Below are positions 29,510 through 48,830 of a stretch of DNA of 64,000 bases, piece after piece. The notes beneath the pieces were generated by a model. It searched no databases. It was not told the origin of the DNA and was given only the letters and a program-made list of their open reading frames with translations. The translations under genes were made by a program, and so were the position numbers. The stretch covers positions 2,019 to 66,018 of the forward strand of contig JBBDKG010000010.1 in the NCBI GenBank assembly GCA_040879435.1. The letters are read 5' to 3'. Position 1 is the first letter of the stretch. The number at the start of each line of letters is the position of its first letter. This DNA comes from Minisyncoccota bacterium. GTDB lineage: Bacteria > Patescibacteriota > Minisyncoccia > Phycocordibacterales > UBA918.

Positions 29510-30727
29510 TCATTGTCGTGGCACTTCATGCAGACACGCGGCTTTCCACGGCTCAGGTATGCCATTACAAATCTGATAAAATCCGTCGGACTCGACCGTA
29601 AATACATAGGTTGCGTACTGCAACATCTTCTCATAGCACGCTTTGTGTGAATTCGTCGCCTCCGCCGCCTCGCACACACTGAGCGCTTTTGCGATATTGC
29701 GGTTGTCAGTCTCTACTAGGCGTGCCGCCGCGTTCGCAAAGCAGATGCTCTCGTACGGCGAACGCACATTCGGACAAAATGATGTCGCCCACTCGGTGCT
29801 CAAGTTCGCGCCGGCCATCGCAAGGAAGAACACACCGGAAAGACACCGCGTATGTTGCCAATCATTGAAATCAACACGGTCACAAAGATCAACGATCGCT
29901 GATGGATCATCGAGCATCTCCGCAAACGGCGGCCAACCCTCACTGATGCACGAACCGTATTTCGCTCCTTCAAACTGCGAACAGAATGTGTTCACTTCTT
30001 CGGGCGTCTCGACCTCCTTCCCTTCGATAAGGGCGAAGTCCTCAGGCTCGAGCGGCTGGTAGATCTGCATGAACGCGCCATCATAGCAGAGCTGACGTTC
30101 CGCATCTTGGTTGTCGGGATTCCCGTCGACGAGCCGGTCACACAATTCAAGCGAATCATGAATGTCAGCGCCGGTCACATACATCGTCAAATGGCCGAGT
30201 GCGTGAATACAGGTCGCCTCGCCCATACCGGTCGGCTCCCACCCATCGCGCGCCTGACACACGCCCGCAAGTTCTCCTTCGATCTCACGTACATCACGTC
30301 CCTCCATCGAGTCCACACGGAACCGTTCCTGAAATGCTCCGTGGATCGCTCCGTTCGAACAGATACCGAGCGGTGCTTTTGCAATGACATCCTTCCACCG
30401 CTCCGGGTCTTTTGCTGTTTCCTTTGCTGAGAGTTCATGCCCGAGGACATGGCAGTACTGGTACGAAGGATCGAGGTCCTGTACGATCCGGGTGATTGAG
30501 AACGCCTCCAACATACTATATCCATTGTCCATCACCTTCGGAATCTCTTCGTCATAGCAAGATGGCCGATATGCTGCGTCAGCACAGGTCGCCACAATGC
30601 TACGCGCGACCGATTCGTGCGTGTCTGAGGTGTGGGTGAACAATGCCCCCACAAACAGAGCGAGCCCAAGCCCCGCACCGAACACGGTGACCATGAAAAT
30701 ACGGGGATGTCGTTTGAGAATACGCAT
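29510..30727 (-). CDS. Cys/His-rich secreted protein, paralog B
   Basis: 405 aa. N-terminal anchor. Motifs YCHVLGHELS, CSNGAIHGAF and CIHALGHLTMY. About 16 Cys. Confidence 0.6.
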   Translation of the reverse strand: MRILKRHPRIFMVTVFGAGLGLALFVGALFTHTSDTHESVARSIVATCADAAYRPSCYDEEIPKVMDNGYSMLEAFSITRIVQDLDPSYQYCHVLGHELSAKETAKDPERWKDVIAKAPLGICSNGAIHGAFQERFRVDSMEGRDVREIEGELAGVCQARDGWEPTGMGEATCIHALGHLTMYVTGADIHDSLELCDRLVDGNPDNQDAERQLCYDGAFMQIYQPLEPEDFALIEGKEVETPEEVNTFCSQFEGAKYGSCISEGWPPFAEMLDDPSAIVDLCDRVDFNDWQHTRCLSGVFFLAMAGANLSTEWATSFCPNVRSPYESICFANAAARLVETDNRNIAKALSVCEAAEATNSHKACYEKMLQYATYVFTVESDGFYQICNGIPEPWKAACLHEVPRQ

Positions 30728-30776
30728 GAGAAACGTGTGTGAGAGTATCGTACCATGTGGCCATTCGGCCGGTAGT

Positions 30777-31784
30777 TTAGATGAGATCGTGACTCATAAG
30801 GCAGCGTCTATGGTATTCACCATCGAGCGAGTCACACAAACGCTCCCATTCGTCTTTGAACGCCGGTTGATTCGACACAATCCATACCGCACCTTCGATA
30901 CAGAGCATTTCACCTTCACGATCGGGCATAGTGCCGCATGCAGCAAGCATTTCGTCGACATCATACTCCTGTAGCCCGGCGATCACGTTCCCGGCACCGC
31001 GATAACAGGCCTCCCTGCCCTTTTGGTCCTCGATTTCGCTGCACAAATCGCCAACAGCAGCGTAGTCCTGCCCGTTGAGCGCACTCCACCATGCAGGCTG
31101 TTCAAAGTAGCAGGCTTCGATGTATCGGTCGTCGACCTCCGTACACGGGTGGTGCATACCCCACTCACCAGGTTGACGCATGTCCGCCTGCTGCATGGTC
31201 GCAAAGTTGTATTCCATAAAGACACCGCTCGTACAGCCGCCGATCGGACCCTGCCAATTGAGTCGCATGCACGCCTCAAGCGACTTGTTCAGCTCGTCGT
31301 ACCCGAGTTCAGCAATGACACCATGACCGATCCCGTGCTGACACCCAAGCCCTTTTGGTCCATACGCATCAATGCACGCCTGATCGAGTTCGCTGAGAAT
31401 GGAAAGTCCGTTCTCGATGAGCGCCCGTCCGAAAAAGCTGTGGTAGCAGCCGAACCCATAGCCACTATCGCAAACTGCAACACCCGGTATCCCTTCCGTT
31501 TTGTACAGAGCCTCACCGAAAACGTGCGCATAACTATGCTGCTGTACCTCGCTTAGATGCGAATACACTTCACCAAACCACATATACGCCTTCCGTCCGC
31601 CTTTTTCCGCAACAGCAGCCGCCCAGAACGCTGCAACTTCGGGATCCTCCGCCGGAAGCTCTTTTATTGCCGCTGCTCTGGCCTCGGTCGCTTCGGCAGT
31701 GGCTCCTCGTTCAAGCACCGTCGCACCGATGACGCCTATGGCGACACACGCGAGTATGATACTAATGCGTTGGTACTGTTTCAT
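30777..31784 (-). CDS. Cys/His-rich secreted protein, paralog C
   Basis: 335 aa. N-terminal anchor. Motifs GCYHSFFGRAL, GCQHGIGHGVIAE and GCTSGVFMEY. About 16 Cys. Confidence 0.6.
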   Translation of the reverse strand: MKQYQRISIILACVAIGVIGATVLERGATAEATEARAAAIKELPAEDPEVAAFWAAAVAEKGGRKAYMWFGEVYSHLSEVQQHSYAHVFGEALYKTEGIPGVAVCDSGYGFGCYHSFFGRALIENGLSILSELDQACIDAYGPKGLGCQHGIGHGVIAELGYDELNKSLEACMRLNWQGPIGGCTSGVFMEYNFATMQQADMRQPGEWGMHHPCTEVDDRYIEACYFEQPAWWSALNGQDYAAVGDLCSEIEDQKGREACYRGAGNVIAGLQEYDVDEMLAACGTMPDREGEMLCIEGAVWIVSNQPAFKDEWERLCDSLDGEYHRRCLMSHDLI

Positions 31785-33022
31785 ACGCCGAGAACGTCAG
31801 TGCACTCTGGCTGCCATGAATCCGGAAGCGCAGCACAGAACGACGAACGGTACGCCGGATCGGGGTTATAGTTCATGACATTTCTAATTCCGGTACGATA
31901 GCAGTCGTCGACAAGTGCAGCATCATTGACGAGTGCACAGTAGTTAACAACAGCCTCATACGGTTTTTCTCCACCCCAATACAGTGAGTCCACGGTCGAC
32001 GAGACGCAGTGCGCACGACCGTCCTCCGGTTCGGCCAGAAGACACCACTCATACATGGTCTCCAGATGGTCATCGCGCGGAACTTCCGCCACAAAGTCGC
32101 GACCGGTCGCTATGCCGATGAATTCTTTTCCGAGTCCTCCAAAGCACGCCCATCGGTTCCCGGTCTCTTCCATAGGTATCTCGTCACAAAGCTCAAACGT
32201 CTTCTCGAACACATCAGGTGACGGACGTGCCATATCCGCCCCGAACGCTTCGAACGCGAACGGTGTCATGTATATGTAGCAGATCTGACGGAAGTTCTCA
32301 GGCACGATGTCGTCGGTGCAAAGCCCGAACGGATCGTCGGTCTTTAGATACTCATCGCGGCGGAGACGCCAGTTCTCCGGGTCATGCCCACCCCCGCCGA
32401 TGATCTCCATGATCGCGCCGCCGAAACACTCTACCGCCTCCTGCTGCTGAAACTCGTCGGTACCGAACTTTCCGCACATTGCGATCGTACGGTCCATTTC
32501 ATACGCGTTGTATGCAAGCACTCCGTGTCCAAGTCCATGGAAACACATTGTATATGCACCGTCCCCGCCCGGGGCGTTGTGGCAGGCTTCACGAATTTTG
32601 GACAGTGCTCCCTCGCCGAACTCGAGGAGTGCACCGATCACCATCGTATGCGAACACGCGTTGCGGAAGTCATGTGTGCAGTGCGCCATGCCATCAATTC
32701 CCTCTTGTTCATACATGATCTCTCCCACTTCATGCCCAAGGAGATGCTGGTCGAGTCCGAACGGGAACGGCGCTACCTTCATGAGGCTGAATGCATACAC
32801 TCCACCCTTCTCGGCTGCGATACCTTTGAAGAGCTCAATGAATTCATTGAATGGCGCTTGCTGGTCGGTGAGTGATGCGACCTGTTCTATGTCGCTTTCG
32901 GATACCGTGCCGGGTATGGACGCCATTCCTGATATCGAATCAAAAATGAGTACCGTTGCAAGAACGACCACAAGTACCAATAGACCGCCGACCGCATACT
33001 TCATACTGACACAGTCTACCAA
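31781..33022 (-). CDS. Cys/His-rich secreted protein, paralog D
   Basis: 413 aa. N-terminal anchor. Motifs HLLGHEVGE, CFHGLGHGVLAYN and ECFGGAIMEI. 4-nt overlap with paralog C. Confidence 0.6.
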   Translation of the reverse strand: MVDCVSMKYAVGGLLVLVVVLATVLIFDSISGMASIPGTVSESDIEQVASLTDQQAPFNEFIELFKGIAAEKGGVYAFSLMKVAPFPFGLDQHLLGHEVGEIMYEQEGIDGMAHCTHDFRNACSHTMVIGALLEFGEGALSKIREACHNAPGGDGAYTMCFHGLGHGVLAYNAYEMDRTIAMCGKFGTDEFQQQEAVECFGGAIMEIIGGGGHDPENWRLRRDEYLKTDDPFGLCTDDIVPENFRQICYIYMTPFAFEAFGADMARPSPDVFEKTFELCDEIPMEETGNRWACFGGLGKEFIGIATGRDFVAEVPRDDHLETMYEWCLLAEPEDGRAHCVSSTVDSLYWGGEKPYEAVVNYCALVNDAALVDDCYRTGIRNVMNYNPDPAYRSSFCAALPDSWQPECTDVLGV

Positions 33023-35406: not shown

Positions 35407-36666
35407 TTATTTACCACCACGCTCCTCGATAAATCGGATACGCTTACGTCCTTCACGACTGAGAGTCCTGACCGATCGACACTGCATCGCCGGTACGAGA
35501 CCGCGCGAAACAGCGTCGGCGTACGTCCGGTCTGGTGAGATGCGCACCGCTTGCATGAATGCATCAATAAATGACCGCTCATCAAACGGACCGCGTGGTA
35601 ACACCCACAGTTCTGCTTGCATTGGTACAGTATCGGTCACCGGTGTGTAGTGAAGTTCAAAATCAGGCATAACAAGATCATGAAACGTACCGATCGCACG
35701 TTCGAACTCAGACGCCTGTAACTGTCCGCCTGGTATTCTGATCCGGTCAAGCTCCCGGCGTCCACGCGTTGCATACCGCCGCTGCCACGGGTCCTCGTGA
35801 TAGGTCGTGTACATAGCAAGGTCACCCATTCTATATCGGAGGAGAGGCGATGGATTATTCTCAGTCCACATCATGGTGACGACGACCTCTCCCTCCTTCC
35901 CGGTCTCTTCGATGACCGTACCTGTGTCGGGATCGATCAGTTCCATGTACAGATGTTCAGATGTTGAGAATATCGTACCTAGCTCCATATCAAATTCATC
36001 GACCGAGTATCCAAGCCGTGTTTCGTGGATCTCGGTCGCCCCGTACAGCGTATACACGAGCGCACCTGGAAATGCTGTTTTCAACTTTACATACTGTGCC
36101 GGTGTCACCCGTTCACCGAACGTGTACACGACCGCGACACCCTCACGGAGTCCGTACCGGTCGAGCTGCTGAATGAACATATCGTACGCAAACAACCAAC
36201 AGCCGACCACATTGATCGGCAAGCCTTCAGCCAATCGCACCGCCGCTCCCACCGCATGCAAGTCTCCTCCAATAAAGGGAATGTTCGGATATTTGAGACG
36301 AAAACCGTTCTCGACCGCATAACTAATGTCTCCAAGACTGAGTACACCTGTGGGCTGTATGCGTTCGAATAACTCATCATATCGCCAGGTGAAGTTCCGC
36401 AATGTCATTAACACCTCACCGCCCGAGGTACCTGACGATGTGCGGATCATGTCGGCGTTCGAAAGGTCGGTGAAGGTTCGTTCGAGTAACGGTACCTGCT
36501 GAAGATCAGCCTTGGTGACGAACGGAAGCGAACGCCAGGCATCCAAAGTATCGACATGGAAGTCAGGTCGCACGCGGTCACCATAGAGGTCACGATAAAA
36601 ACTCGCACGGTCGTTGTGGTATGCGTATTGAAACATCGCATCAAGTTTTGAAAGGTAGTTCAGCAT
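35407..36666 (-). CDS. adenylate-forming enzyme of the PaaK/CapK/coenzyme F390 synthetase family, copy 1
   Basis: 419 aa. AMP-binding motif IRTSSGTSGGEVLM, and YGATE and later conserved blocks of phenylacetate-CoA-ligase-like enzymes. Confidence 0.7.
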   Translation of the reverse strand: MLNYLSKLDAMFQYAYHNDRASFYRDLYGDRVRPDFHVDTLDAWRSLPFVTKADLQQVPLLERTFTDLSNADMIRTSSGTSGGEVLMTLRNFTWRYDELFERIQPTGVLSLGDISYAVENGFRLKYPNIPFIGGDLHAVGAAVRLAEGLPINVVGCWLFAYDMFIQQLDRYGLREGVAVVYTFGERVTPAQYVKLKTAFPGALVYTLYGATEIHETRLGYSVDEFDMELGTIFSTSEHLYMELIDPDTGTVIEETGKEGEVVVTMMWTENNPSPLLRYRMGDLAMYTTYHEDPWQRRYATRGRRELDRIRIPGGQLQASEFERAIGTFHDLVMPDFELHYTPVTDTVPMQAELWVLPRGPFDERSFIDAFMQAVRISPDRTYADAVSRGLVPAMQCRSVRTLSREGRKRIRFIEERGGK

Positions 36667-37478
36667 GGCGTTATGGTATATGCCTTCTGTTGGCTGATCG
36701 TTTCAGTCGGTGCGCATGAGAACGGGAGCCGATACCTACACAATGGCAATACTGACTCATCAACACCGGTGATAAACGTACCATCCTCATTGAACTCCCA
36801 AAGATAGCGACGATCGAGGTGGAACGTGTCCGTCGACCCGAGAAGTGGAAAGGACTGGTATGCAATGACATGCCCCGGAAACAGATGTATCTCAAGTGTG
36901 GTGTTCGCATTAGGTACCGTGCACGACGCGAGATCGATCGGCAACTCATCAACACCAGCAAACGCAACGACAGTCTTGATAATGTCAGTGACGCCACGGC
37001 GCTGAAGTTCATTTTGTAGCGCCGCAACATCAGCTATATGCGCGACCAGAAATGTTGGCTGCGCTTGTCGGACGATCTCAGCTGCAAGCGGCGTGTTGGT
37101 AAATGATTCGCGCGTCACAAAGAGACCATGTCGTCGTGCCTGCAGGTGGAACGGGTACACGAATTGCCACAGACCGGGTGCAAACAACATCACACCACCG
37201 TGTGGTTTATAAAAGCGGTATTGCTCATCAAGCGATCGCCACTGCGGGAATTGGTACTGCGGGATCGGATCAGACAAATCATCATCGTTCCGGATGAATC
37301 GTGACGGAATACGGTTGATGATCGTCCGTTTCAATCGTTGCGCTTCCGCTACGATACGCTGGCTACACGTATCAGGCGTGTCGAGTTCCAATGCGGTCAG
37401 ATCATGGGTGCCATATCGATCATCGAGTACACGTTCGAGGTCTGGCAACGTTGCAGGATACAGTGATTCAGCATGCAT
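36660..37478 (-). CDS. hypothetical protein, translationally coupled partner of adenylating enzyme copy 1
   Basis: 272 aa. Its last codons overlap the downstream enzyme start by 7 nt. No recognisable motif. Confidence 0.5.
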   Translation of the reverse strand: MHAESLYPATLPDLERVLDDRYGTHDLTALELDTPDTCSQRIVAEAQRLKRTIINRIPSRFIRNDDDLSDPIPQYQFPQWRSLDEQYRFYKPHGGVMLFAPGLWQFVYPFHLQARRHGLFVTRESFTNTPLAAEIVRQAQPTFLVAHIADVAALQNELQRRGVTDIIKTVVAFAGVDELPIDLASCTVPNANTTLEIHLFPGHVIAYQSFPLLGSTDTFHLDRRYLWEFNEDGTFITGVDESVLPLCRYRLPFSCAPTETISQQKAYTITPC

Positions 37479-37483
37479 ACACT

Positions 37484-39103
37484 CTACTCTACCGTATAAA
37501 CATCAGCGGACAATGATTTCTGTTCGAGAATAAAAGACGCGAGCGTTTCGATAGGGACTGTGGCCTGGAGTGCCCCCCGATACAACACGAGACCGCTCGC
37601 CGGATCAAGCTCCCCCGCTCGTTCCCGAAGGAAACGGACCGGCTCAGTGTATAGGGTGGCATTGGCAGCAAGAAAGAGTGAGGTGTAGTAGCTACGGGTG
37701 AAGAGCAGTGATTCGATGGGTATCTCCATAACCTCAAAGACATATCGACTGGTCGCCGCCATATCATCGATCCTGCTTATTTCCGTCTCAAACCATGCGC
37801 TTTGCGCCCGCCAGAGCGTCACCATATCGATCAGGCGGTAAACGGTCGCCTCATCCAGGACCCCTGCCGGGTCGTCGGTGGTATTGAGAAATGCAGTGAC
37901 GTGCCCTATATACGCATCGTAGTCTGCCGCATTGAGCACACTGTCTTCCAGACGGATCTTTTGTTCATACGTGCGAGCTTGCGCAAGCGGCTCGGGAAGC
38001 TCCACAACATCATACGATGTGAGGAGTGGTTCAGAGTGAAGTGTCTCAAACATCCACTGCACTGTTCGTACTGTACCGGAATCAAGTCCGTAGTCGATGC
38101 AAAGGTATGGATTCATCTGCTGGTAGACGTACGTGGCCCCGGTCCTGGCAAGTGCAGTTTCGAACGGAGAGGTCTGTTGCGCCGTATCATGAAAAAGAAT
38201 CTCACTGACGGGAGTGAGCCAGAAGACCGGACGACCGCTATATCGTGACGACCGCCAAAAATAGAGATAGGTTGCTGACTGATCGACCGTGCATTCGGCT
38301 TCCGGTATATACACAAGTGGCAACGTATGTGGGTCACGGTCGAGATATGCAACTGGAGCGAACGGACCGGCGTCCACCATCACGGCGCGCAACGCCTCAG
38401 TTCGTTGAGATAGATCTTCCGCCGGTCGCGTCGCACGCACACTATTCTGATTTGTATACAGTGGAATAGCCGCGTCACACGCGCCACGTTCTGCGGCTGG
38501 GAGCAGGCACCGAAGACGCTGCATACTCTGTGCCAGCAGATCATCTGCACGAACATAGATATCTGCTAATGTCCCGGCGATGTACTCAAGCGATGTCGCC
38601 CCGGCCGGTGTGCTCAATTCAATGTCGGGAGCCTCGGTATACATAGCGTCTGAGAGTATCCGAGCGTCACTGCGCAGGAATGCAAGACTGCGCGCAAGCA
38701 GTACATGGTACCGAATTGCTCTCCAGTAACTCGGCTTCGCAATGAACACTCGCCTGGCGTCCTCGAGCTCAGGCAACGAAGTGAGAAACGCCATTGGATA
38801 CAACGCAGCATCAATGATCTCCTGTTCATGTTCGGCATACCGTCCCGTATATACATCGCGACTTTCTGCGAGCGCCTCGAGTGACCGTTCAAGTTCAGTC
38901 ACATTCGTTTCGGGGAGTGCAAGGATCGGGTCATACAGAGTTGTACGCCACACTGCATGTAGCCGCACAGGCACACTCCCGTCACTGTTGTCGAGATGCG
39001 GTTCGTACACGCGTGTAGCTAGAACAAACAATGTGACCGCAATACCGACCATCAATACAGCGAAGAGCGTGTAGCGGATGTTTCTCATATCACTGACGTT
39101 CAT
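37484..39103 (-). CDS. large membrane-anchored extracytoplasmic protein L1, unknown function
   Basis: Preferred start MNVSDMRNIRYTLFAVLMVGIAVTLFV (signal anchor). The ORF-track extension to 39295 overlaps the upstream gene and is Arg/Ser-rich junk. Confidence 0.55.
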   Translation of the reverse strand: MNVSDMRNIRYTLFAVLMVGIAVTLFVLATRVYEPHLDNSDGSVPVRLHAVWRTTLYDPILALPETNVTELERSLEALAESRDVYTGRYAEHEQEIIDAALYPMAFLTSLPELEDARRVFIAKPSYWRAIRYHVLLARSLAFLRSDARILSDAMYTEAPDIELSTPAGATSLEYIAGTLADIYVRADDLLAQSMQRLRCLLPAAERGACDAAIPLYTNQNSVRATRPAEDLSQRTEALRAVMVDAGPFAPVAYLDRDPHTLPLVYIPEAECTVDQSATYLYFWRSSRYSGRPVFWLTPVSEILFHDTAQQTSPFETALARTGATYVYQQMNPYLCIDYGLDSGTVRTVQWMFETLHSEPLLTSYDVVELPEPLAQARTYEQKIRLEDSVLNAADYDAYIGHVTAFLNTTDDPAGVLDEATVYRLIDMVTLWRAQSAWFETEISRIDDMAATSRYVFEVMEIPIESLLFTRSYYTSLFLAANATLYTEPVRFLRERAGELDPASGLVLYRGALQATVPIETLASFILEQKSLSADVYTVE

Positions 39104-40724
39104 GGTATGAAATAAATTCTTTGACGAGTTCCGTAAATGAAGTCTCCTCAATGACCGACGAGAGGTATACGTACGGGGTCTCTGCCCGCGGCAGCGAGAA
39201 CGGTTCGTGAACGTCACCGGGAGATACAGAAGCAAAGAGGAGCAGCCCGAACGGTACAAAGGCACTTCGGGAAAAATAGATGCGGTCGATCTCAACTGCG
39301 GGTATCACACCCGCATCAAGTGACGTGGCATTCGCTGCTTCAGAGACTGCGATACTAAATATCAACAGTCCTCCACCCTCGGTAAGCCGGTCAAATCGTA
39401 GTGCAAAATCTGCAAGCGCGGCATGGTGTTCTTGTGGAATCTCTCCTGTCCCCACATATCGCAGTGCGGTCTCTATATATGCACGTGCACGATCCTCCGC
39501 TACCGCTTCGGCTGTGATTGATTCAAGGGAACGAAGCGATTCGTAGTCAGTTGTCTCTTCAAGATATCCACTCAACTGATGCTCGAGAGCATACTGACGC
39601 ACATCCCGCGTGGTAAGGGCTGCACCAATATCACGCGAAGCGGCGGCGCATGCATAGTGCGAGAACGGCGATGCCGGCACGTACGTGTACCCACGGCCAT
39701 AGAAATAGCGATAGAACGGCACCTCCAGAAAGTCTTCAACACGGATCATCCTCACATCCGACCCCTCCTGTATGAGTGGGTGTGACCGGCTAGGAGATTC
39801 AACAACAACACGCGGGTCGACCTCAGGATTCAGGCACCAACTCCGTTCGAGCGTCACGTGTATGCGTTCATGATCACGACCTGTTTCGGTATCGATCATT
39901 TGATACAACCGTCCAACGTCCTGATACGTTGTATTAGCATTGGATACGGTCTCCGTATCTGACCATACGACCGGATATCGCAGCGCTGTCGCATCACACG
40001 GGGCAAACACGTCTGTCACGCAGCGGGTAAACGAGACGACATGTTGGCCAGCCGACCTGCTGGCGCCACGCAGCAGTTGCAACGTATCAAGTGTATTTTC
40101 CTTTGTGATGCTGTGCCGTTCGGTGACAACACGGATCGTGTCGTATCGGACAAACCAGCGGTACGCAGCTTCATACAAGATCGACTCACGTTGGTACGTG
40201 GCATCAAGACGCGATGCTGCATGAAGATAATCGGTCAGATGGTCCATTGTACTCTCTTCAAGAAACAGGCGACGTGCCTTTTCCGCTGCTCCTGCAGCGC
40301 GTAGCGTATCGCTCGGAAACAATGTATGTCGGACAAGAACCTTGCCGACTATTCCCGGTTCATATTCCGATAGTCGCTCCTGCACATCCTGTAACTGATT
40401 GGCTCCTTGCTCCAGATACTCTATATCGATTCCAGGAAGTGCAATCGATGGATTCACCCGAAGAACACGTTTTGCATACGCAAGCCGTAAGATCGTCATC
40501 TGGTCAGAGCGGCTAAGCGTTGTATCCGTGACAACGACCCCGCCGCGTACCTCGTACAATCGGTTCTGATATGCCACTGTTTCATACACACCCGCATCGT
40601 GGAGCATGTATGAAAATTGCTCAATAGAGCGCTGCTGCACAGCGATACCAAGGCCCCCCACAATAACGGCAAGTACAAGGCCGGTCGCAAACGTGCGTTT
40701 CGAATTTCCAAGAAAAGGCGCCAT
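39090..40724 (-). CDS. large membrane-anchored extracytoplasmic protein L2, unknown function
   Basis: 544 aa. N-terminal anchor MAPFLGNSKRTFATGLVLAVIVGGLGIAV, then a soluble domain. Confidence 0.55.
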   Translation of the reverse strand: MAPFLGNSKRTFATGLVLAVIVGGLGIAVQQRSIEQFSYMLHDAGVYETVAYQNRLYEVRGGVVVTDTTLSRSDQMTILRLAYAKRVLRVNPSIALPGIDIEYLEQGANQLQDVQERLSEYEPGIVGKVLVRHTLFPSDTLRAAGAAEKARRLFLEESTMDHLTDYLHAASRLDATYQRESILYEAAYRWFVRYDTIRVVTERHSITKENTLDTLQLLRGASRSAGQHVVSFTRCVTDVFAPCDATALRYPVVWSDTETVSNANTTYQDVGRLYQMIDTETGRDHERIHVTLERSWCLNPEVDPRVVVESPSRSHPLIQEGSDVRMIRVEDFLEVPFYRYFYGRGYTYVPASPFSHYACAAASRDIGAALTTRDVRQYALEHQLSGYLEETTDYESLRSLESITAEAVAEDRARAYIETALRYVGTGEIPQEHHAALADFALRFDRLTEGGGLLIFSIAVSEAANATSLDAGVIPAVEIDRIYFSRSAFVPFGLLLFASVSPGDVHEPFSLPRAETPYVYLSSVIEETSFTELVKEFISYHERQ

Positions 40725-40789
40725 ATCTGTTGATCGTAAGGCCGGTATACTGGCGGCAAAAGCGACTCTGCTATACTACCCAAACCAGT

Positions 40790-41896
40790 ATGGAAAAGAA
40801 AGACGATCTGCGGCCTCGGTTCCTGACCCTCCTCGAAGACATGTTTGCCCATCCTCCGAATGCTCGTGAGGTAAAACAATATCGCTTTATGCATACATCG
40901 GGAACCACCGGTATCCCGCTCCCCGTTGTTTGTACCGGTCGGCGAGACTGCAATCCGGCATTTTTAGGGCGTGGTACACGCACGCTCATGCTCTTCGGAT
41001 CGAAACCGCTTCGTCTCGATTTTGCACGCACGTTCGCTGACCCGGATACGCCCAAAAGCGACATCATGTTCTGTTCGCTCACTACGTCAGCACAAGAAAA
41101 CGAACGCATATGGCGTGAGTGGCGTCCGGACGCGATCGCCAGTCCTCCATCAGTTCTACTGCGATTTACACGCGCTTGGCCTGAAAACGCACGCGCGCAG
41201 GTTACCAGCGTCATTCTCGCTGGAGAGTTTGTGAGTAAGGTGGTGAGTGACATTATTCACGAGAGATTCCAGCATGCACGTATTGAGAACTACTACCCAG
41301 CGACTGAGACCGGACTCATTGGTACCCAGTGCTCCTTGTGCGCATGGAATGAATTCCATCCGGTCGACGGCGTTACGTTTTCCATACACGAACCGGACGC
41401 AGACGGACGTGGCGACCTTCTGCTCAGCAAGGAAAACCCGGGTGGCATTGCTTTCACCGACTACCGTGTCGGAGATGTTGCGAGCGAATCAAATCACAAT
41501 GGACACCGCGTCATCGTACTATACGGTAGACGGGGGTTTGACTACATCAAGCTTGCTGAGGCATTGCTGGTCAGAGAGGAGTTTGATCGTGTTGCAATGG
41601 AGCTCGAGCGCTATATCGACGACTACCGTGCCGAACTCACGACCCGTATCGAAGACGGTGTACCAAAGCATCACCTCACACTCCAGGTCATCGCAACGCC
41701 TGATGCCACACGAACAGGGCAAGCCCTTGCGGATCATCTCGCTGCCGAAGTGTCGTCCCGGCTTTTTGTCACACCACACTCCACGCTCAAGGATGCTGTG
41801 GAAAACGAAATATTTGCACCGCTCACCGTCTTGCTCGTAGATACGATCACACATACGACAGCGAAACCGCAGCGTCTGATTCGTGTGGACGCTTAG
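40790..41896 (+). CDS. adenylate-forming enzyme of the PaaK/CapK/F390 synthetase family, copy 2
   Basis: Preferred start MEKKDDLRP. AMP-binding motif FMHTSGTTGIPLPVV and a YYPATETG block. About 370 aa. Confidence 0.65.
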   Translation: MEKKDDLRPRFLTLLEDMFAHPPNAREVKQYRFMHTSGTTGIPLPVVCTGRRDCNPAFLGRGTRTLMLFGSKPLRLDFARTFADPDTPKSDIMFCSLTTSAQENERIWREWRPDAIASPPSVLLRFTRAWPENARAQVTSVILAGEFVSKVVSDIIHERFQHARIENYYPATETGLIGTQCSLCAWNEFHPVDGVTFSIHEPDADGRGDLLLSKENPGGIAFTDYRVGDVASESNHNGHRVIVLYGRRGFDYIKLAEALLVREEFDRVAMELERYIDDYRAELTTRIEDGVPKHHLTLQVIATPDATRTGQALADHLAAEVSSRLFVTPHSTLKDAVENEIFAPLTVLLVDTITHTTAKPQRLIRVDA

Positions 41897-41910
41897 CTCC
41901 CTTTCATACT

Positions 41911-42660
41911 ATGGACACCCAGATACTGAATCAATTGATCGAGCAACTCTATACAAGTGAGGAGGGTGGATTGTATCGCACATTCTGGGGCAAAAGACCG
42001 GAAGACTTCTCTACGCTGCCGCTACTCACTCCAGATATTCTCGCCAGCACGTCACTCTACGACCGCACATACAGTCGCGACCAGGGGCTGGTACGGTCCG
42101 TTGCGACGCGTGGCAGTGAGTTTCTCGTAAAGCGCTCGTTCGTTGATATTGCGCACGAGCATCTACCTGTACCATCTGGTTCGCGAGCACTTGTTCTCAC
42201 CACGAATCCAGACGATGCGCTCGAGTACGCACTGTGGTGTTACGAGCATGGTTCGATCCCCTATTATGGCGACGTTGGCAATGTGGAAGTGGCAGTGTTC
42301 TGTGCCGAACACTTCCGCACAAATGTACTCATCACTGACAATGTAACCATTGCATCGCTTATTACTGATGCTCGTATACCGAGTATGATCGAGTTGGTTG
42401 TCATCATTGATCGCGTACACTCTAGTGATCAAACACCGCTTCTTGCGACTGAGCGTGTACTCTACCTGCCTGAAACTGGGTGCCTCGGTCGCATTGAATC
42501 CACCACGGACGGATTGGTGCTACTTGAAGATGGCCGCGTGTTTGCTGAAGTACTGGATGACACACTTGTGGTGACAAAAGCGAACGCGACGACCCCACTG
42601 ATCCGGTACAAAACAGAAATCGCTGCCCGGGTGGAACGCGATACAATCTATCTCGTTTAG
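41911..42660 (+). CDS. hypothetical protein, partner of adenylating enzyme copy 2
   Basis: 249 aa, 14 nt downstream of copy 2 on the same strand. No recognisable motif. Confidence 0.5.
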   Translation: MDTQILNQLIEQLYTSEEGGLYRTFWGKRPEDFSTLPLLTPDILASTSLYDRTYSRDQGLVRSVATRGSEFLVKRSFVDIAHEHLPVPSGSRALVLTTNPDDALEYALWCYEHGSIPYYGDVGNVEVAVFCAEHFRTNVLITDNVTIASLITDARIPSMIELVVIIDRVHSSDQTPLLATERVLYLPETGCLGRIESTTDGLVLLEDGRVFAEVLDDTLVVTKANATTPLIRYKTEIAARVERDTIYLV

Positions 42661-42915: not shown

Positions 42916-43430
42916 CTACCGATCAAACTGCGCAAGCAGTCCTGCCCATACGTCCTTCACGTACCCAACTATCCGCTCCCAGTACGAGACGATGCGATAT
43001 TTGAACGTGTCGGTGTACCCTTCAAACAAGTATTCTCCCTTCTCCACCAACGCATCAGGACCTTTCTCCACCTCGACCTCGATGGGGTTCGCGAGAATGT
43101 ATGGGTCGTGGCGGATGCCGGTGACCTGCCAGGAGACCTTTGCAGAAGGTGGGCCGCCGGCGATGGTGAAGCGGTTGTTCTCGATCTCTTCTTTTATATG
43201 TATATCAGGGGCAGGTGCGGTGATCCCTTTCACCTGATACCGGTAGTCTGTGTTCAGTGCTTCAAAATAACGCGGTAGCGTTACAACCGCCTCTCCCTGT
43301 GCGTTCAGAGTGACAACCCCGTCATACATGTTCTTCACATCCGGTGACTCGACGAACGAGTGATACAGGAGTTTGTTCTCCGGATCGAGTGGGTGGTCGA
43401 TGACGAATGAACCAGAGCCTTTTGAGAGTG
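42916..43430 (-). repeat. copy 1 of a ~400-500-bp near-identical dispersed/tandem repeat (the shared C-terminal-domain coding segment)
   Basis: For example, the 43031-43190 block ctccaccaacgcatcagg(a/g)cctttctccacctcgacctcgatggggttcgcgagaatgtatgggtcgtggcggatgccggtgacctgccaggagacctttgcagaaggtgggccgccggcgatggtgaagcggttgtt is repeated with 0-1 mismatches at 43623 and 44425. Boundaries approximate. Confidence 0.8.
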
Positions 43431-43587: not shown

Positions 43588-44060
43588 CTATTCACTATCC
43601 TCTTCATACCCCTCATGGATATATTCTCCCTGCTCCACCAACGCATCAGGGCCTTTCTCCACCTCGACCTCGATGGGGTTCGCGAGAATGTATGGGTCGT
43701 GGCGGATGCCGGTGACCTGCCAGGAGACCTTTGCAGAAGGTGGGCCGCCGGCGATGGTGAAGCGGTTGTTCTCGATCTCCTCCTTTATATACAGGTCCGG
43801 CGCCGGTTCATCGAGCGCAGTGTATTGGTATCGGTAGTCACTGTTCAGTGCTTCAAAATACTCCGGCAGATCGACCACCGCCTCCCCGTTCTCGTTAAGT
43901 GTGGTCACGCCATCATAGATGTTCTTCACATCCGGTGACTCGACGAACGAGTGATACAGAAGCTTGTTCTCCGGATCGAGTGGGTGGTCGATGACGAATG
44001 AACCAGAGCCTTTGGAGATGCTGTTCGTGACCGCAAGGTTTGAGTTCATGGTCACGCTCC
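43588..44060 (-). repeat. copy 2 of the near-identical repeat
   Basis: See copy 1. Boundaries approximate. Confidence 0.8.
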
Positions 44061-44400
44061 CGGAGAAGGTAACATCATAGGTACTCTGATAGTACGTTTG
44101 GTAATAGGATTGGTAATAGGATTGGTAGTACGCCTGATAGTACGATTGATAGTAGCTTTGATAATACGACTGGTAATACCCTTGGTAGTATCCTTGATAA
44201 TACCCCTGGTAATAGCCTTGATAGTATCCTTGGTAGTAGCCCTGATAGTAGCTTTGGTAGTAGACTTGATAGTAGCTTTGACTGTACGCACCTGCATAAG
44301 ACGCGGATGCAAACATACCGACCAGCGTACATACGCCCACGATCAGAACGGCGACCAACTGCCTACGTCCCCTTATTCTGTTACTCATTCGTATCATCAT
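43588..44400 (-). CDS. secreted protein P2: signal anchor, (YYQG/S)n tyrosine-rich repeat, then the conserved C-terminal domain
   Basis: Preferred start MMIRMSNRIRGRRQLVAVLIV, which overlaps the P3 stop in another frame. About 24 consecutive YYQx tetrapeptides, then SKGSGSFVIDHPLDPENKLLYHSFV... Confidence 0.65.
   Translation of the reverse strand: MMIRMSNRIRGRRQLVAVLIVGVCTLVGMFASASYAGAYSQSYYQVYYQSYYQGYYQGYYQGYYQGYYQGYYQGYYQSYYQSYYQSYYQAYYQSYYQSYYQTYYQSTYDVTFSGSVTMNSNLAVTNSISKGSGSFVIDHPLDPENKLLYHSFVESPDVKNIYDGVTTLNENGEAVVDLPEYFEALNSDYRYQYTALDEPAPDLYIKEEIENNRFTIAGGPPSAKVSWQVTGIRHDPYILANPIEVEVEKGPDALVEQGEYIHEGYEEDSE
44095..44290 (-). repeat. 12-nt-period tandem repeat encoding (YYQG/YYQS)n
   Basis: On the + strand, ttggtaatagga / ttggtagtacgc / ctgatagtacga ... 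units, translating on the minus strand to YYQSYYQGYYQGYYQG... Confidence 0.85.
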
Positions 44401-44870
44401 AGTACCCCTCATGGATATATTCTCCCTGCTCCACCAACGCATCAGGGCCTTTCTCCACCTCGACCTCGATGGGGTTCGCGAGAATGTATGGGTCGTGGCG
44501 GATGCCGGTGACCTGCCAGGAGACCTTTGCAGAAGGTGGGCCGCCGGCGATGGTGAAGCGGTTGTTTTCGACACCACCACGAACGTGGAGCGTTGGTCCG
44601 GGCTCACCGATCGGCGTGAGGAGGAAGCGGACGTTCTCACGATCATTCAATGCTTCAAAGTAGTCAGGTAGCGTAACCACTGCTTCCCCGTTCTCGTTAA
44701 GTGTCGCCACACCATCATAGATGTTCTTCACATCCGGTGATTCCACGAACGAGTGATACAGGAGTTTGTTCTCCGGATCGAGTGGGTGGTCGATGACGAA
44801 GGTTCCGGAGCCCTTGGAGAGCGAACCAACCACAGAGAGGTTCTGGAGGAAGTCTGCACTACCGGAGATC
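44381..44870 (-). repeat. copy 3 of the near-identical repeat
   Basis: See copy 1. Boundaries approximate. Confidence 0.8.
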
Positions 44871-44999: not shown

Positions 45000-47900
45000 T
45001 TATTTCTCCTCTTCAAGGTCGAAGTGCGGCTTTGTATCCTGATCCGGTCGGATGTTGCTCCACTCCATCCAGTCGAAGCGGTTCGCCATGAACCGAGCCG
45101 ATACCTCACCCGGCGCGGTCGCCTGGATGACGAGCGCATTGTTCTTGAAGTCCTTGGTGTAGAACACTCTACCATCAAATCCGGCAGTGAGGGTAACGGC
45201 GAGTTTCTCCCACAGAACCCCGAAGTCCGTCACCTGGTAGAAGAGCCAGAGGTCGCTCGCCTTCGCGAGATCATTCCAACTGATGCGGTACTCGTAGTAG
45301 CCCGTTTCCTCGTTCCGCTCGGTGAGTTTGATGGTCTCGGACGCCTCCTCCTTCACACCGATCGCCGAGACACCGAACGTTGCGTAGTTCACACCACCGA
45401 TGCGGTAGATCGGGTCGATGGTCGCCACGTCAAGCTTTCCGTGAATGATGACGTCCCGCTCCACAATGATGTTACCGGTACCGGTCGGAGATGACGCCGG
45501 ACAGGAGCCCCCGGAACATGTCCAGATGTTCTCATCGTTGTATCTGACGTCCCCGCCCTGTGCGTTCACAATGAGGTCGCCGGCAGAGTCCACTTGGAAG
45601 TCAGCGTAACGGGTTGCGTCGTATGAGATACGGAACTGGTCGTCGGAGACGGTATCAAACACCTGCAAGCGCTTGTTTGGTGTGGTGGTGCCGATGCCGA
45701 CGTTGCCGCCAGTATCCAGAGTGAATGCCTGTCCATCATCAGCATGGGAACCAACCCCAATGATCAGACGGTTCGAGTTCCCTCCACGATCAAGCCCGAC
45801 ATATCCTAAACCACCAGCGCTATTTCCAAACGACACTTGCGGTGCAATAGCAGTACTTGCAGTAACGATATCAAGCAGGGTTGAAGGCGTCGTCGTCCCG
45901 ATCCCCACGTTCCCCGCGCTGGTGATACGCATACGTTCAGCCAAGGTGGAGGTGCCGGTTGGGACGGTAAAGAAGCGGAGGTCGGTAGCCACTGAGGTGT
46001 TGGTGTAGTTCTCCATGGCCAAGGCCTGGATAGAGGCTCCGGTTCTCCAGGCACTGGTACCGTAGCCCTGGAAGTTAAAGTACCCGAGGTCGTCTCCAGA
46101 CTGAGTGGCAGTTGGCGTGTCGGGGTTACCGCGTGAAGCGCCGAGACTCATTTCAGGAGCGGCGGCGAAGCCACCGAGGTCGGACGAGGTCCGGTTGGTG
46201 AAGCCTGAGTAGTTGTCGCTGGTAATGTTGAGATATCCGCCGTCGTCGTATTTCAAAGTAGAGGTGGCGGTGCCAAAGGAGTTGATGCTAAAAAGTGTGT
46301 CGTATGAACCGGCGCTGTTGGTCTGGTAGATGCTGAGTTTGCTGTTTGGTGTGGTGGTGCCGATGCCGACGTTGCCGTCCGAATCAACAAACACGCCCTC
46401 ATCATCACCATCACCAGACAGAAAGTTCGACCCGAGCGCAATATTTGCTCCAGTTCCGGTGAATACAAGATTTCCGGAGATCTCATCGCCCGTGTTTAGG
46501 ACGTAGTCGTCATCGACATCGATCGTGTTGCCGGTCCACGTAAGCCCGGTACCGGCGGTGATGCGGGTGCTTGGCGTGTTGAAGAAATTGTTCCAAGCGG
46601 TGGTTGATGCAGTTGTAGAGATCTCATACCCGGACGACAACGCAACGGAGTCACCGGAAAGCTCAAGACCAGGCGCGGACACAGCAAGGTTCGAGTAGTC
46701 GCTGATGTCGACAGCATCAGCATTCCACGTACCGGTCGTGATGGTACCAACGGTCGCAAGCGACGCAGCACTTGCAAGATTCGCCAGCGTATCGATCGCA
46801 GACTCAATGGTCGCTTCGGTCGTCGCGTCGAGCGCGTCGACATTCTGGAGCGTCAGCGTGCCAGACGAGTCGCTGAACGGTACCGATGCTCCGATCTGCA
46901 ACCCGCTGTTCGGCAGGATGAGCGTGCCGGTCATCGTGTCGCCCGTGTTCTGCACGAACGCATCCTGAATGAACGCCGCAGAGAGCGTCGTCGACGCAGA
47001 GATCGTTCCGGTGTTGTCTGTGACCAACACGCCGTTCGATAGAGTGGAAATGCTCACCGCACCGCTCGATGAGACATCGAAGTAGCTGGTGCCACTTGAC
47101 GACGCCACGTTGAATATATCAGCAGACTGTCCGGCAGTACCACGCACATCGAGCGTAGTCACGGTCGTGGTCGACGAATCATTCTGAATGAACGTCGGCT
47201 GGTTGAAGTCGAACCGGTCACGGGTCGCGTCCCACGTAATGAGTGCGTTCGGTACCACGACACCACGATAGAAGATGAGACTGATCGACTCCGCATCAGC
47301 GCTCGCGTTGTCGCTGTTGATGGTGAAGTTGTTCGACTGCGTACCGGAGATCGAGGTCGAAGCAGCTGAAATGTTGTTGGCGGTGATGGTGTCGAAATAG
47401 CCGTCGTTCCAGAAGAACGCCGGTGAACCGATGTCATAGGTGGCGTTGATGGTCGGGATGAGGTCGGAACCGATGCTTGAGTTGATTACAAGCGTACTTG
47501 CAGACGACGTCCCGACCACGTATGAATCGCCGGTGACGGTGAGGTCGCCGTCGATCGATACGTCACCCGACGCTGAGATATTGCCGAAGGTGCTCGTCGC
47601 GTTCGCATCACTCGCTACAAACCTTGACGCCGTGATCACTCCGCTTGCCACACTGTCCCCGACCGTGAGGTGCGTGATACTGGTCGTCGCAAGCGTCGAC
47701 GTTCCCGTGACGGTGAGTTCACCGAATGTACCGAACGATGCAAGCAGGTTCGTAATGAAACTATTGGTCGAAGTAGCGTTCGTTGATACGAGGTTGGTAC
47801 TTGTGGAATTCGTTGCAATAAGGTCGGTCACGGTCCCGCTGGTGATCGTCGCATCCGTGATAGTCGTTGTTGCAAGCGTGGCGCTGCTGGTCACTCTCAA

Positions 47901-48830
47901 GTTCGTACTGGTTGCATTCGTTGCGACAAGGTCGGTTATCAAACCACTGGTGATCGTCGCATCCGTGATAGTGGTGGTCGCGAGTGTTGAGAGGCCGAGT
48001 ACGGTAAGGGCCGCGTCGACGATGAGCGAGTCGGTCAATCGCGCACTGCCGACCACATCAAGCGCATAGAGCGGAGTCGAGGTGCCGATACCGATACGAT
48101 TCAGACTTGAATCGATGAAGAGCGTGCTGTTGTCGAAGTTAAGGTCGGCGGCGTTGGTGTCGAGATCGAACGTAGTGGTCGCGTCGACCGTGAGTGCGTC
48201 ACGGAATTCAGTGAAGTCGAGTGAGTCCGCCGTCACATGAGAACCATTGAGCGTGCTGGTGGACACCTCACCGAGCCAGTTGACGAACAATAGGCTGTTG
48301 CCGAGCGTGCCCCTGATATCGTCGAGTGTGAAGGATCCTTGAATGACCGTATCGACCGTCACATTGTCAATGGCACCACTCAGATCATCACGGTTGTCGC
48401 TATCCTGTGTGCCGCTTTGTCGGCGCAGTCTCGCGACCTCGTCCTCAAGGTCAGCGATGTCCTCTTGGATATACGTGATGGTCTGCTGATTGAAGATGAC
48501 TGCATTCAGTGCCTCATCCACCTTGCGCAACATCCCTATGAGGCCGGAGGAAGAGGATGCCGGTGCAGCTTCTTCACGGATCACGATCTCTTCACGAATG
48601 ATAGTCGCCGGAGCCGGTGACTGCGGTAGTGCGGTGTCGCCGGAGCTCGTGTTGTTTCCGTCGCCGATAATCAAGCAGCCACCAACTTCAGAGAGTGCAG
48701 GAGTCGCAAGGGAGCAGAAGACAGCGGCCACTCCGGGTATCGTTCCGAGTTTCTGGTACATGGCCGCCGTCAGTCCCCCGAGCACCAGAAAGGCTACGAT
48801 CATACTGATAATTCCCCTACGTGTAGGCAT
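45000..48830 (-). CDS. giant (1276 aa) membrane-anchored fibre-like surface protein with tail-fibre-type repeats
   Basis: N-terminal anchor. Repeated G-N-V-G-I-G-T-T-T-P motif (IGIGTSTP, NVGIGTTTPNSKL, GNVGIGTTTPSTLL, GNVGIGTTTPNKRL), as seen in phage tail-fibre-like / beta-helical adhesins. Internal 36-aa tandem repeats (ATTTITDATITSG...). T/S/N-rich throughout. Confidence 0.8.
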   Translation of the reverse strand: MPTRRGIISMIVAFLVLGGLTAAMYQKLGTIPGVAAVFCSLATPALSEVGGCLIIGDGNNTSSGDTALPQSPAPATIIREEIVIREEAAPASSSSGLIGMLRKVDEALNAVIFNQQTITYIQEDIADLEDEVARLRRQSGTQDSDNRDDLSGAIDNVTVDTVIQGSFTLDDIRGTLGNSLLFVNWLGEVSTSTLNGSHVTADSLDFTEFRDALTVDATTTFDLDTNAADLNFDNSTLFIDSSLNRIGIGTSTPLYALDVVGSARLTDSLIVDAALTVLGLSTLATTTITDATITSGLITDLVATNATSTNLRVTSSATLATTTITDATITSGTVTDLIATNSTSTNLVSTNATSTNSFITNLLASFGTFGELTVTGTSTLATTSITHLTVGDSVASGVITASRFVASDANATSTFGNISASGDVSIDGDLTVTGDSYVVGTSSASTLVINSSIGSDLIPTINATYDIGSPAFFWNDGYFDTITANNISAASTSISGTQSNNFTINSDNASADAESISLIFYRGVVVPNALITWDATRDRFDFNQPTFIQNDSSTTTVTTLDVRGTAGQSADIFNVASSSGTSYFDVSSSGAVSISTLSNGVLVTDNTGTISASTTLSAAFIQDAFVQNTGDTMTGTLILPNSGLQIGASVPFSDSSGTLTLQNVDALDATTEATIESAIDTLANLASAASLATVGTITTGTWNADAVDISDYSNLAVSAPGLELSGDSVALSSGYEISTTASTTAWNNFFNTPSTRITAGTGLTWTGNTIDVDDDYVLNTGDEISGNLVFTGTGANIALGSNFLSGDGDDEGVFVDSDGNVGIGTTTPNSKLSIYQTNSAGSYDTLFSINSFGTATSTLKYDDGGYLNITSDNYSGFTNRTSSDLGGFAAAPEMSLGASRGNPDTPTATQSGDDLGYFNFQGYGTSAWRTGASIQALAMENYTNTSVATDLRFFTVPTGTSTLAERMRITSAGNVGIGTTTPSTLLDIVTASTAIAPQVSFGNSAGGLGYVGLDRGGNSNRLIIGVGSHADDGQAFTLDTGGNVGIGTTTPNKRLQVFDTVSDDQFRISYDATRYADFQVDSAGDLIVNAQGGDVRYNDENIWTCSGGSCPASSPTGTGNIIVERDVIIHGKLDVATIDPIYRIGGVNYATFGVSAIGVKEEASETIKLTERNEETGYYEYRISWNDLAKASDLWLFYQVTDFGVLWEKLAVTLTAGFDGRVFYTKDFKNNALVIQATAPGEVSARFMANRFDWMEWSNIRPDQDTKPHFDLEEEK

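Follow-up and report, generated by a model that had tools for sequence, protein, structure and literature searches.

What would a cellular bacterium do with an exported protein in which one whole segment is half tyrosine? This question is raised by a 64,000-nucleotide stretch of DNA from a Minisyncoccota bacterium of the Patescibacteria (contig JBBDKG010000010.1, positions 2,019 to 66,018; hereafter the window), where the minus-strand gene P2 encodes a signal peptide, an array of tyrosine-rich tetrapeptides, (YYQx)16, and a C-terminal domain that we call the knob. The reading that we favour, tentatively and at slightly less than even chances, is that the array would serve as a non-globular stalk or tether, conserved in composition and variable in length, of a secreted "mini tail fibre".

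Tandem Repeats Finder locates a 12-nucleotide period at window positions 44098-44280 (15.2 copies, 72% matches) and, in the same tract, a 36-nucleotide super-period (3.5 copies, 81% matches). Translated from the minus strand, the array reads SYAGAYSQS-YYQV-YYQS-(YYQG)6-(YYQS)3-YYQA-YYQS-YYQS-YYQT-YYQS and passes directly into TYDVTFSGSV...SKGSGSFVIDHPLDPENKLLYHSFVESPDVKN...; together with its degenerate lead-in it comprises about 72 residues, half of them Tyr, with Lys and Arg absent (Table 1). The preliminary description of this locus, which had reported a tyrosine tetrapeptide array drifting between G, S, A, V and T at the fourth position of the unit, was right as to the existence of the array, the order of its units and their drift, but its figure of about 24 units was too high: there are 16 perfect units and a degenerate lead-in, and 196 nucleotides divided by 12 likewise give about 16. 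A single YYQx unit is expected by chance about once in 32,768 sites, so that the observed run is far above chance, and no second array of this kind occurs within the window. The Leu/Ile/Val-rich open reading frame (ORF) on the plus strand at 44098-44511 was discarded as an antisense shadow of the repeat, the coding strand being the minus strand.

All 16 DNA units are distinct (mean pairwise identity 71%), and they encode only five peptide types. Because the DNA units all differ while YYQ is invariant, with no non-synonymous change in any of its 48 codons, the array is old and under selection at the peptide level. Its tyrosines are encoded by 18 TAC and 14 TAT codons, its glutamines by 11 CAA and five CAG, its glycines by three different codons and its serines by both the AGY and the TCN families. 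The longest exact internal repeat measures 18 nucleotides, against 18.6 +/- 4.4 when the same peptide is encoded by random synonymous codons in simulation, and the order of codons cannot be distinguished from random synonymous choice. Diversified units and random-like codon use therefore exclude both an assembly stutter and a recent expansion by slippage; it is the peptide, not the DNA, that selection conserves, with strong purifying selection on YYQ. The earlier argument against a simple assembly stutter is thus borne out, whereas the accompanying claim that the array is prone to slipped-strand mispairing does not fit the P2 copy, which lacks the near-identical DNA units expected of slipped-strand contingency. 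Short-period tandem repeats can mis-assemble, and a collection of 15 billion proteins contains the two neighbours of P2, namely P1 and P3, but not the exact P2 sequence from any of six plausible start sites; public annotation may have called P2 differently or omitted it. That the array is an assembly artefact, or a neutral and recently expanded slippage tract without function, is nevertheless close to refuted, not only by its DNA units but also by the reading frame, which continues into a domain with thousands of homologues, and by the equivalent arrays found in dozens of independent assemblies.

P2 starts at the ATG at 44397 (or at 44400 or 44388), overlapping the end of P3 in another frame. 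Its N-terminus had been described as a signal anchor; we regard it rather as a Sec-type signal peptide that looks cleavable, either after ASA (ASA/S) or, five residues further on, after AGA (AGA/Y). The AxA/Y arrangement also occurs in 56 homologues, all complete proteins, in which the residue at -1 before the first Tyr is small in 89% and that at -3 is compatible with signal peptidase in 80%, the first Tyr lying a median of 7 residues past the hydrophobic core. The array does stand, as had been proposed, between the export signal and the conserved domain of P2, and by the same sequence pattern the mature protein probably begins with the array. Its C-terminus (...HEGYEEDSE) has no hydrophobic tail and no LPXTG-type sorting signal.

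The domain that follows the array connects P2 to phage fibres. Searches with P1, P2 and P3 gave no usable match in Pfam or NCBIfam (only spurious sub-threshold FliH matches to the repeat), two PHROGs of unknown function and no others, and nothing but noise at E > 0.1 in a profile search of PDB sequences. A word-seeded search nevertheless recovered more than 6700 homologues of P2 at E <= 1e-3 among 8000 scored candidates, those with names coming from Paceibacterota, Kaiserbacteria and other Patescibacteria and all being "hypothetical", and an exhaustive search with the knob alone yielded 13,654 cluster representatives at E <= 1e-3, including 5527 at E <= 1e-30. This defines a very large unnamed family, also represented in phage tail fibres and without a Pfam model. 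The knob is almost always C-terminal, in proteins of 200-1200 amino acids; in nearly all of the best 150 cluster representatives (proteins of up to 1210 amino acids) the match ends about 5-70 residues from the C-terminus, and in the 14 sequences that we read it is preceded by fibre-like, Gly-rich or lectin-like regions.

AlphaFold2 models the knob as a beta-sandwich core with a predicted local distance difference test (pLDDT) score of 96-98, while the lead-in and an IDHPLDP segment score 52-77 in monomer models, values that would fit an interface without proving it. Compared with solved structures by Foldseek, the knob has weak matches (E 4e-3 to 3e-2), all of them to phage tailspikes or tail fibres: the Pam1 tailspike (7eea), the R2 pyocin fibre (6cl6/6ct8) and AP22 gp53 (4mtm). 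Among the predicted viral structures of BFVD, the best match (E 1.4e-11) is the minor tail protein of Arthrobacter phage Mufasa8, with 24 further matches at E < 1e-3, including, at E 1e-7 to 1e-9, a tail-fibre-like protein of Prochlorococcus phage P-SSM2 and two Caudovirales "Collagen triple helix repeat" proteins, known to us by name and not by sequence. The same Mufasa8 minor tail protein, gp19, is retrieved by tblastn with 37% identity (E 6e-10), and the shared motifs are visible in its translation. Since Foldseek and tblastn agree on Mufasa8 gp19, the knob is a cellular relative of the phage tail-fibre distal domain, and its homology to the distal domain of phage minor-tail and tail-fibre proteins is clear. 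P2 has both marks of the family, namely the similarity to phage fibres and a C-terminal knob after a repetitive region, here the Tyr array.

Tyr-rich arrays occupy the space between signal peptide and knob lead-in in 51 of the 120 best homologues. They are 10-70 residues long and are built from YY[QE]x, xYYSQ or GYYY[GS]Q units, and the 16 perfect units of P2 form the longest YYQx run seen in the knob family. At the fourth position of the unit (n=298), G accounts for 39%, S for 29%, A for 12%, T and P for 6% each, D for 3% and N for 2%; basic residues never occur there and bulky hydrophobic ones are nearly absent (one F, one V and one Y). The spacer between YY pairs is two residues long in 298 cases, three in 130 and four in 81, and the pooled composition is 43% Y, 16% Q, 13% S and 12% G, with only 0.3% for K and R together. 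Close orthologues, whose knobs are 86-94% identical, differ in array length (15 versus 24 residues; 21 versus 25) and in unit order, so the length variation foreseen in the preliminary description does exist among orthologues, as gain and loss of units over evolutionary time. The suggested search for YYQG-type arrays in related genomes likewise found the repeat type conserved in homologues, and an unstructured linker in which the repeat is not conserved is therefore not an adequate description. Because YY spacing varies and the residues at position 4 (G, S, A, P, T, D, N) are interchangeable, the arrays appear to follow a grammar of composition rather than a strict fold, which argues that composition and length, and not exact repeat geometry, are what matters.

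The same data bear on the suggestion that such sequences are amyloid or prion-like, in which case the arrays would stack as cross-beta fibrils or a hydrogel and the knobs would decorate the surface of a sticky matrix. The low complexity in Tyr, Gln and small residues on which that suggestion was based is real: the near-uncharged Y/Q/G/S composition resembles prion-like domains of the FUS type, a period of four residues would give a strand one Tyr/Gln face and one Tyr/small face, no confident monomer fold is predicted for the array, and one of the proteins found (L045, described below) is little more than a low-complexity array plus anchor. However, in the orthologous proteins L012, L014, L043 and P0004 the arrays are made wholly of YYQP, every fourth residue being Pro, and turn-forming residues (G, S, A, T, P, D, N) predominate at position 4, where Pro accounts for 6% overall. 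With YY pairs spaced by 2-4 residues no consistent strand face is conserved, which argues against an in-register cross-beta core kept across homologues. The P2 array is moreover devoid of Asn, and it is joined to a knob whose relatives sit at the tips of fibres, and these fibres are trimeric in solved phage structures. The amyloid reading is weakened above all by the all-YYQP orthologues and the variable YY spacing, and we consider it distinctly unlikely.

In the stalk reading, Sec would export P2 and cleavage immediately ahead of the first Tyr would free it of its signal peptide, leaving a Tyr-rich tail that runs straight into the first strand of the knob. The tail takes the place of the beta-helical, Gly-rich or collagen-like shaft of longer knob relatives, an equivalence that is seen in bacterial relatives and that, for the two phage proteins, is read from their "Collagen triple helix repeat" names. 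It would act as an extended, turn-rich spacer holding the knob away from the cell, its function depending on composition and length and not on exact repeat geometry, and many weak Tyr/Gln contacts would probably hold P2 in the cell envelope or on the giant fibre-like protein encoded upstream. Many other surface proteins of Patescibacteria carry this module too, again as a stalk or linker. Since P2 is translationally coupled with two array-less knob paralogues, P1 and P3, we further speculate that a mixed knob could contain P2 as its only tailed subunit.

Several points weigh against this reading. The extended form of the stalk is suggested by position and comparison, pLDDT being below 50 over the whole array (the helices that AlphaFold2 draws there were set aside for their low confidence), and cleavage of the signal peptide would leave the N-terminus of the stalk free, so that a spacer role needs the putative retention contact. 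The word-seeded sample of homologues was chosen by shared 5-residue words and is hence biased towards YYQ arrays. Knob sequence separates array-bearing from array-less proteins weakly, with a nearest-neighbour concordance of 0.61 against 0.51 +/- 0.05 in shuffled data, and gene conversion blurs the paralogue classes. Finally, a passive linker with a Tyr content of 43-50% would be most unusual, which is a hint of some specific chemistry, such as binding, cross-linking or modification. Because the Tyr content is so extreme, multivalent Tyr contacts may well be part of the function, whether with the envelope, the giant fibre, glycans or through covalent chemistry.

If binding is that chemistry, the row of tyrosines could be an anchor or adhesive rather than a spacer, attaching P2 by CH-pi stacking to the cell's own peptidoglycan, to a surface-layer (S-layer) glycan or to a host surface. 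Once its signal peptide has been cleaved, nothing else in P2 would evidently retain it; carbohydrate-binding modules and lectins typically bind sugars through aromatic strips, Tyr/Ser/Gly-rich loops are good generic binders, and attachment to host cells is the presumed way of life of many Patescibacteria. In the proteins L006, L019, L045 and L047, on the other hand, the array is flanked by two folded domains or followed directly by a C-terminal membrane or sorting-like anchor, and an additional anchor would be redundant there. Such a glycan- or envelope-binding tail, which overlaps with the stalk rather than excluding it, seems to us unlikely.

Alternatively, the tyrosines could be the substrate of covalent chemistry, cross-linked through dityrosine or 3,4-dihydroxyphenylalanine (DOPA) or O-glycosylated to give a tough or protease-resistant coat. 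Dityrosine and DOPA are found in resilin, spore coats and mussel adhesives, and Tyr O-glycosylation in some S-layer glycoproteins. The extreme Tyr content (50% in P2) and the near absence of Lys and Arg would suit this chemistry, as would a family of Cys/His-rich membrane proteins of about 400 amino acids encoded near array genes, three copies of which lie in the window beside a weak cupredoxin-like match. Yet neither the operon nor its flanks yielded a peroxidase, laccase, tyrosinase or glycosyltransferase, the cupredoxin match is below the Pfam threshold and the Cys/His-rich family has no detectable relative of known function, and we judge this explanation very improbable. A bolder variant, about as doubtful as the amyloid, would see in the array a Patescibacteria-specific element, either a tyrosine-zipper fibre (homo- or hetero-oligomeric and nucleated by the knob) or an oxidatively cross-linked Tyr adhesive, which would fasten the surface fibres, pilins and lectin-like domains of these ultra-small cells to their own envelope or to a host, the operon with its three paralogues then encoding a mixed knob with a single Tyr tail. 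If the tyrosines do perform specific chemistry, be it stacking, cross-linking or the binding of glycans, the module becomes a candidate device for attachment.

The stalk reading has parallels in known systems, none of which P2 matches entirely. Like the tail fibres and minor tail proteins of phages (Mufasa8 gp19, P-SSM2), P2 carries the homologous knob after a fibrous or low-complexity region; unlike them, it is a chromosomal, cellular protein with predicted Sec export, encoded near ftsA and ftsZ, and its "shaft" is a 72-residue Tyr-rich array, neither beta-helical nor collagen-like. With the BclA hairs of the exosporium and other bacterial collagen-like proteins, including Scl, it shares a short N-terminal part, a length-polymorphic stalk, a C-terminal knob and a monoderm surface, but its period is four with Gly at 6 of 64 residues, not Gly-X-Y, and the fold and family of the knob differ. 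The wall-spanning repeats of Gram-positive bacteria (the Ser-Asp repeats of ClfA and Sdr proteins, serine-rich repeat adhesins) are likewise composition-defined and length-variable and lie between an anchoring end and a functional domain, a topology which matches that of L045 and of the L013-type proteins; P2 differs in its N-terminal array, its Tyr/Gln composition and the lack of an LPXTG-type signal. Prion-like FUS-type domains, resilin and the GYYPTSPQQ repeats of high-molecular-weight glutenin resemble the array in their Tyr/Gln/Gly/Ser enrichment, near-zero charge and drifting repeats. Their Tyr content is about 10-20%, as compared with 43-50% here, and the P2 array is bacterial, by prediction extracellular, fused to a folded fibre-tip domain and without Asn. 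As for a resilin-like nature, turn-formers are favoured at position 4 in homologues, yet the P2 array itself has no Pro and only 9% Gly, and its neighbourhood yielded no oxidase. Low-complexity stalks on fibre-tip proteins are already known in kind; the Tyr-rich version of Patescibacteria is apparently new.

How widely such arrays occur was addressed by a DNA-pattern scan of one genome per species (185,579 species), which found four or more YYQx units at 47 loci. In the species genomes, 12 coding arrays precede this knob and nine stand on other extracellular architectures. Real array ORFs are confined to metagenome-assembled genomes (MAGs) labelled Patescibacteria (Paceibacterota, Kaiser-, Adler- and Nomurabacteria, Saccharibacteria), to unclassified MAGs and to one "Acidimicrobiales" MAG (L048), which is probably mis-binned. 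Matches elsewhere, in Bacteroidota, archaea, Phytoplasma, giant-virus MAGs and others, are perfect DNA microsatellites of 1-3 distinct units in short ORFs; being non-coding or out of frame, they were rejected. About eight real coding arrays of at least eight units were found in 241 million metagenome records, and no coding array at all in 2.9 million viral contigs. L062 and L066 carry recently expanded, DNA-homogeneous arrays, with 12 units in four DNA types.

At least six extracellular architectures other than that of P2 carry coding YYQx, xYYSQ or GYYYGQ arrays. A recurrent one is a Patescibacteria family (L005, L013, L018, L039, L043, L084, L086) with an N-terminal transmembrane (TM) segment, the motif EARFxDxSxSGLQ(V/I)VPAS(G/C), the array, a Cys-rich region and a C-terminal immunoglobulin-like domain ending in ...IPxWxE. 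L019, a 621-residue protein from a Saccharibacteria-labelled MAG, consists of a pilin-like N-terminus (GFSLMELLVVV), Cys-rich repeats, an array of about 200 residues and a C-terminal PT-HINT domain (Pfam E 1.3e-13); a type IV pilin-like start with a self-processing Hint module behind a Tyr stalk is an unusual combination. L045, with 244 residues and from a Patescibacteria-labelled MAG, has a signal peptide, (GDSG)12, an xYY[SN]Q array and then IPYTG, a hydrophobic segment and a basic tail, an ending that resembles a sortase-type sorting signal. In a further architecture the array is followed by an InlB-B-repeat-like domain, and the metagenomes add arrays joined to Laminin_G_3 (L077) and to a CARDB-like domain (L062). 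The array is membrane-proximal and the globular domain distal in both the P2 and the L013 types, and in L045 too the array is next to the membrane-proximal end. A search with the array only gave five matches, P0265-P0269, all metagenomic and 105-128 amino acids long; four of them (P0265, P0266, P0267 and P0269) form a small secreted family with a signal peptide, VAHAD-x-PYSQ, a YYQx array in which Asp is frequent at position 4, and a short Cys/Gly/Pro-rich C-terminus, P0268 being outside this pattern.

The array is thus a module reused across the surface proteins of Patescibacteria, and apparently an undescribed, Patescibacteria-restricted class of Tyr-rich extracellular stalk module, for which there is no Pfam or NCBIfam model; in the literature we found no description of such arrays or of this knob in Patescibacteria. 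The Patescibacteria (candidate phyla radiation) make up a large share of bacterial diversity, and their surface proteins are almost all "hypothetical". A phylum-restricted surface module of 43-50% Tyr, present on at least seven architectures, provides a sequence handle for those that are surface-exposed, namely YY-(2-4 small/polar residues with one Gln/Glu)-YY, and an unusual test case for Tyr-rich low-complexity sequence outside the cell.

Table 1. Window coordinates of P2, its segments and the other genes of its operon.
Feature	Position	Strand	Description
P2	43588..44397	minus	269 aa (amino acids), stop included; signal peptide, Tyr-rich array, tail-fibre-like knob; from ORF and translation
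Sec-type signal peptide of P2	44302..44397	minus	residues 1-32, MIRMSNRIRGRRQLVAVLIVGVCTLVGMFASA; basic n-region, 17-aa hydrophobic core, small -1/-3 residues
Degenerate lead-in of array	44275..44301	minus	9 aa, SYAGAYSQS; homologue arrays open with the same single-Tyr unit Y-[SGA]-[QE]
16 perfect YYQx units	44083..44274	minus	64 aa; x = V,S,G,G,G,G,G,G,S,S,S,A,S,S,T,S; Tyr 50%, Gln 25%
Lead-in strands and C-terminal knob of P2	43591..44082	minus	residues 106-269, SKGSGSFVIDHPLDPENKLLYHSFVESPDVKN...; about 165 aa; no Pfam/NCBIfam match
Giant membrane-anchored fibre-like protein	45000..48830	minus	1276 aa; first gene of operon; phrog_9942 "tail fiber protein", E 3e-19
P3	44381..44995	minus	204 aa; array-less knob paralogue; identical to NCBI WDZ93_01560, Candidatus Paceibacterota MAG
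P1	42916..43584	minus	222 aa; array-less knob paralogue with C-terminal extension; identical to WDZ93_01550, same MAG

P2 belongs to an operon whose order on the minus strand is giant fibre-like protein, P3, P2 and P1, with junctions ranging from a 17-nucleotide overlap to a gap of about 4 nucleotides, and in which P2 is the only one of three knob paralogues to have an array. The giant protein has N-terminal hydrophobic segments, and over its C-terminal 320 amino acids it shares 36% identity with its upstream counterpart in L002; a large protein lies upstream of the knob paralogues in L001, L002 and L026. The layout of a large protein upstream, followed usually by two array-less knob paralogues and then by one or two array-bearing ones, is repeated at nine other loci, and a conserved operon consisting of a giant fibre protein and three knob paralogues is thereby defined, its layout being conserved in related genomes. 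Between L012 and L014 each of the three paralogues has its orthologue at the corresponding position (81, 78 and 67% identical, whereas identities within a genome are 59-67%). A division of the knobs into clean, ancient array-bearing and array-less classes holds by position for these two loci and was given up for the sample as a whole, where its support is weak. That weak separation is consistent with the gene conversion evident in the window: P1, P2 and P3 have identical DNA stretches of 119-164 nucleotides in common (for example 43061-43188 with 43652-43779, and 43607-43770 with 44403-44566) and are otherwise 53-83% identical, so that the three genes form a gene-conversion mosaic, in contrast to the fully diversified DNA of the array.

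The surroundings of the operon are chromosomal, with ftsA, ftsZ and a gene for a pyridine-nucleotide-disulphide oxidoreductase nearby. The three tandem copies of the Cys/His-rich family, N-terminally anchored membrane proteins, lie at 29510-33022 on the minus strand, 10 kilobases from the operon, and the weak cupredoxin-like match beside them at 28433-29452 on the same strand. The family has motifs such as HLLGHxxGDxLY and CTQDFRNACSH and often comes directly after the array-bearing knob gene at the nine other loci; it has no relative in Pfam, NCBIfam or the PDB. A role of this family and of the cupredoxin-like protein as tyrosine-modifying enzymes was considered and found no support. Closer to the operon, the region 35407-42660 encodes four divergent AMP-binding/PaaK-like paralogues, two with sub-threshold matches to PF00501, and two single-TM proteins of 540-600 amino acids without a family match, one of which (37484-39295) has a 28%-identical homologue adjoining the knob cluster in L001.

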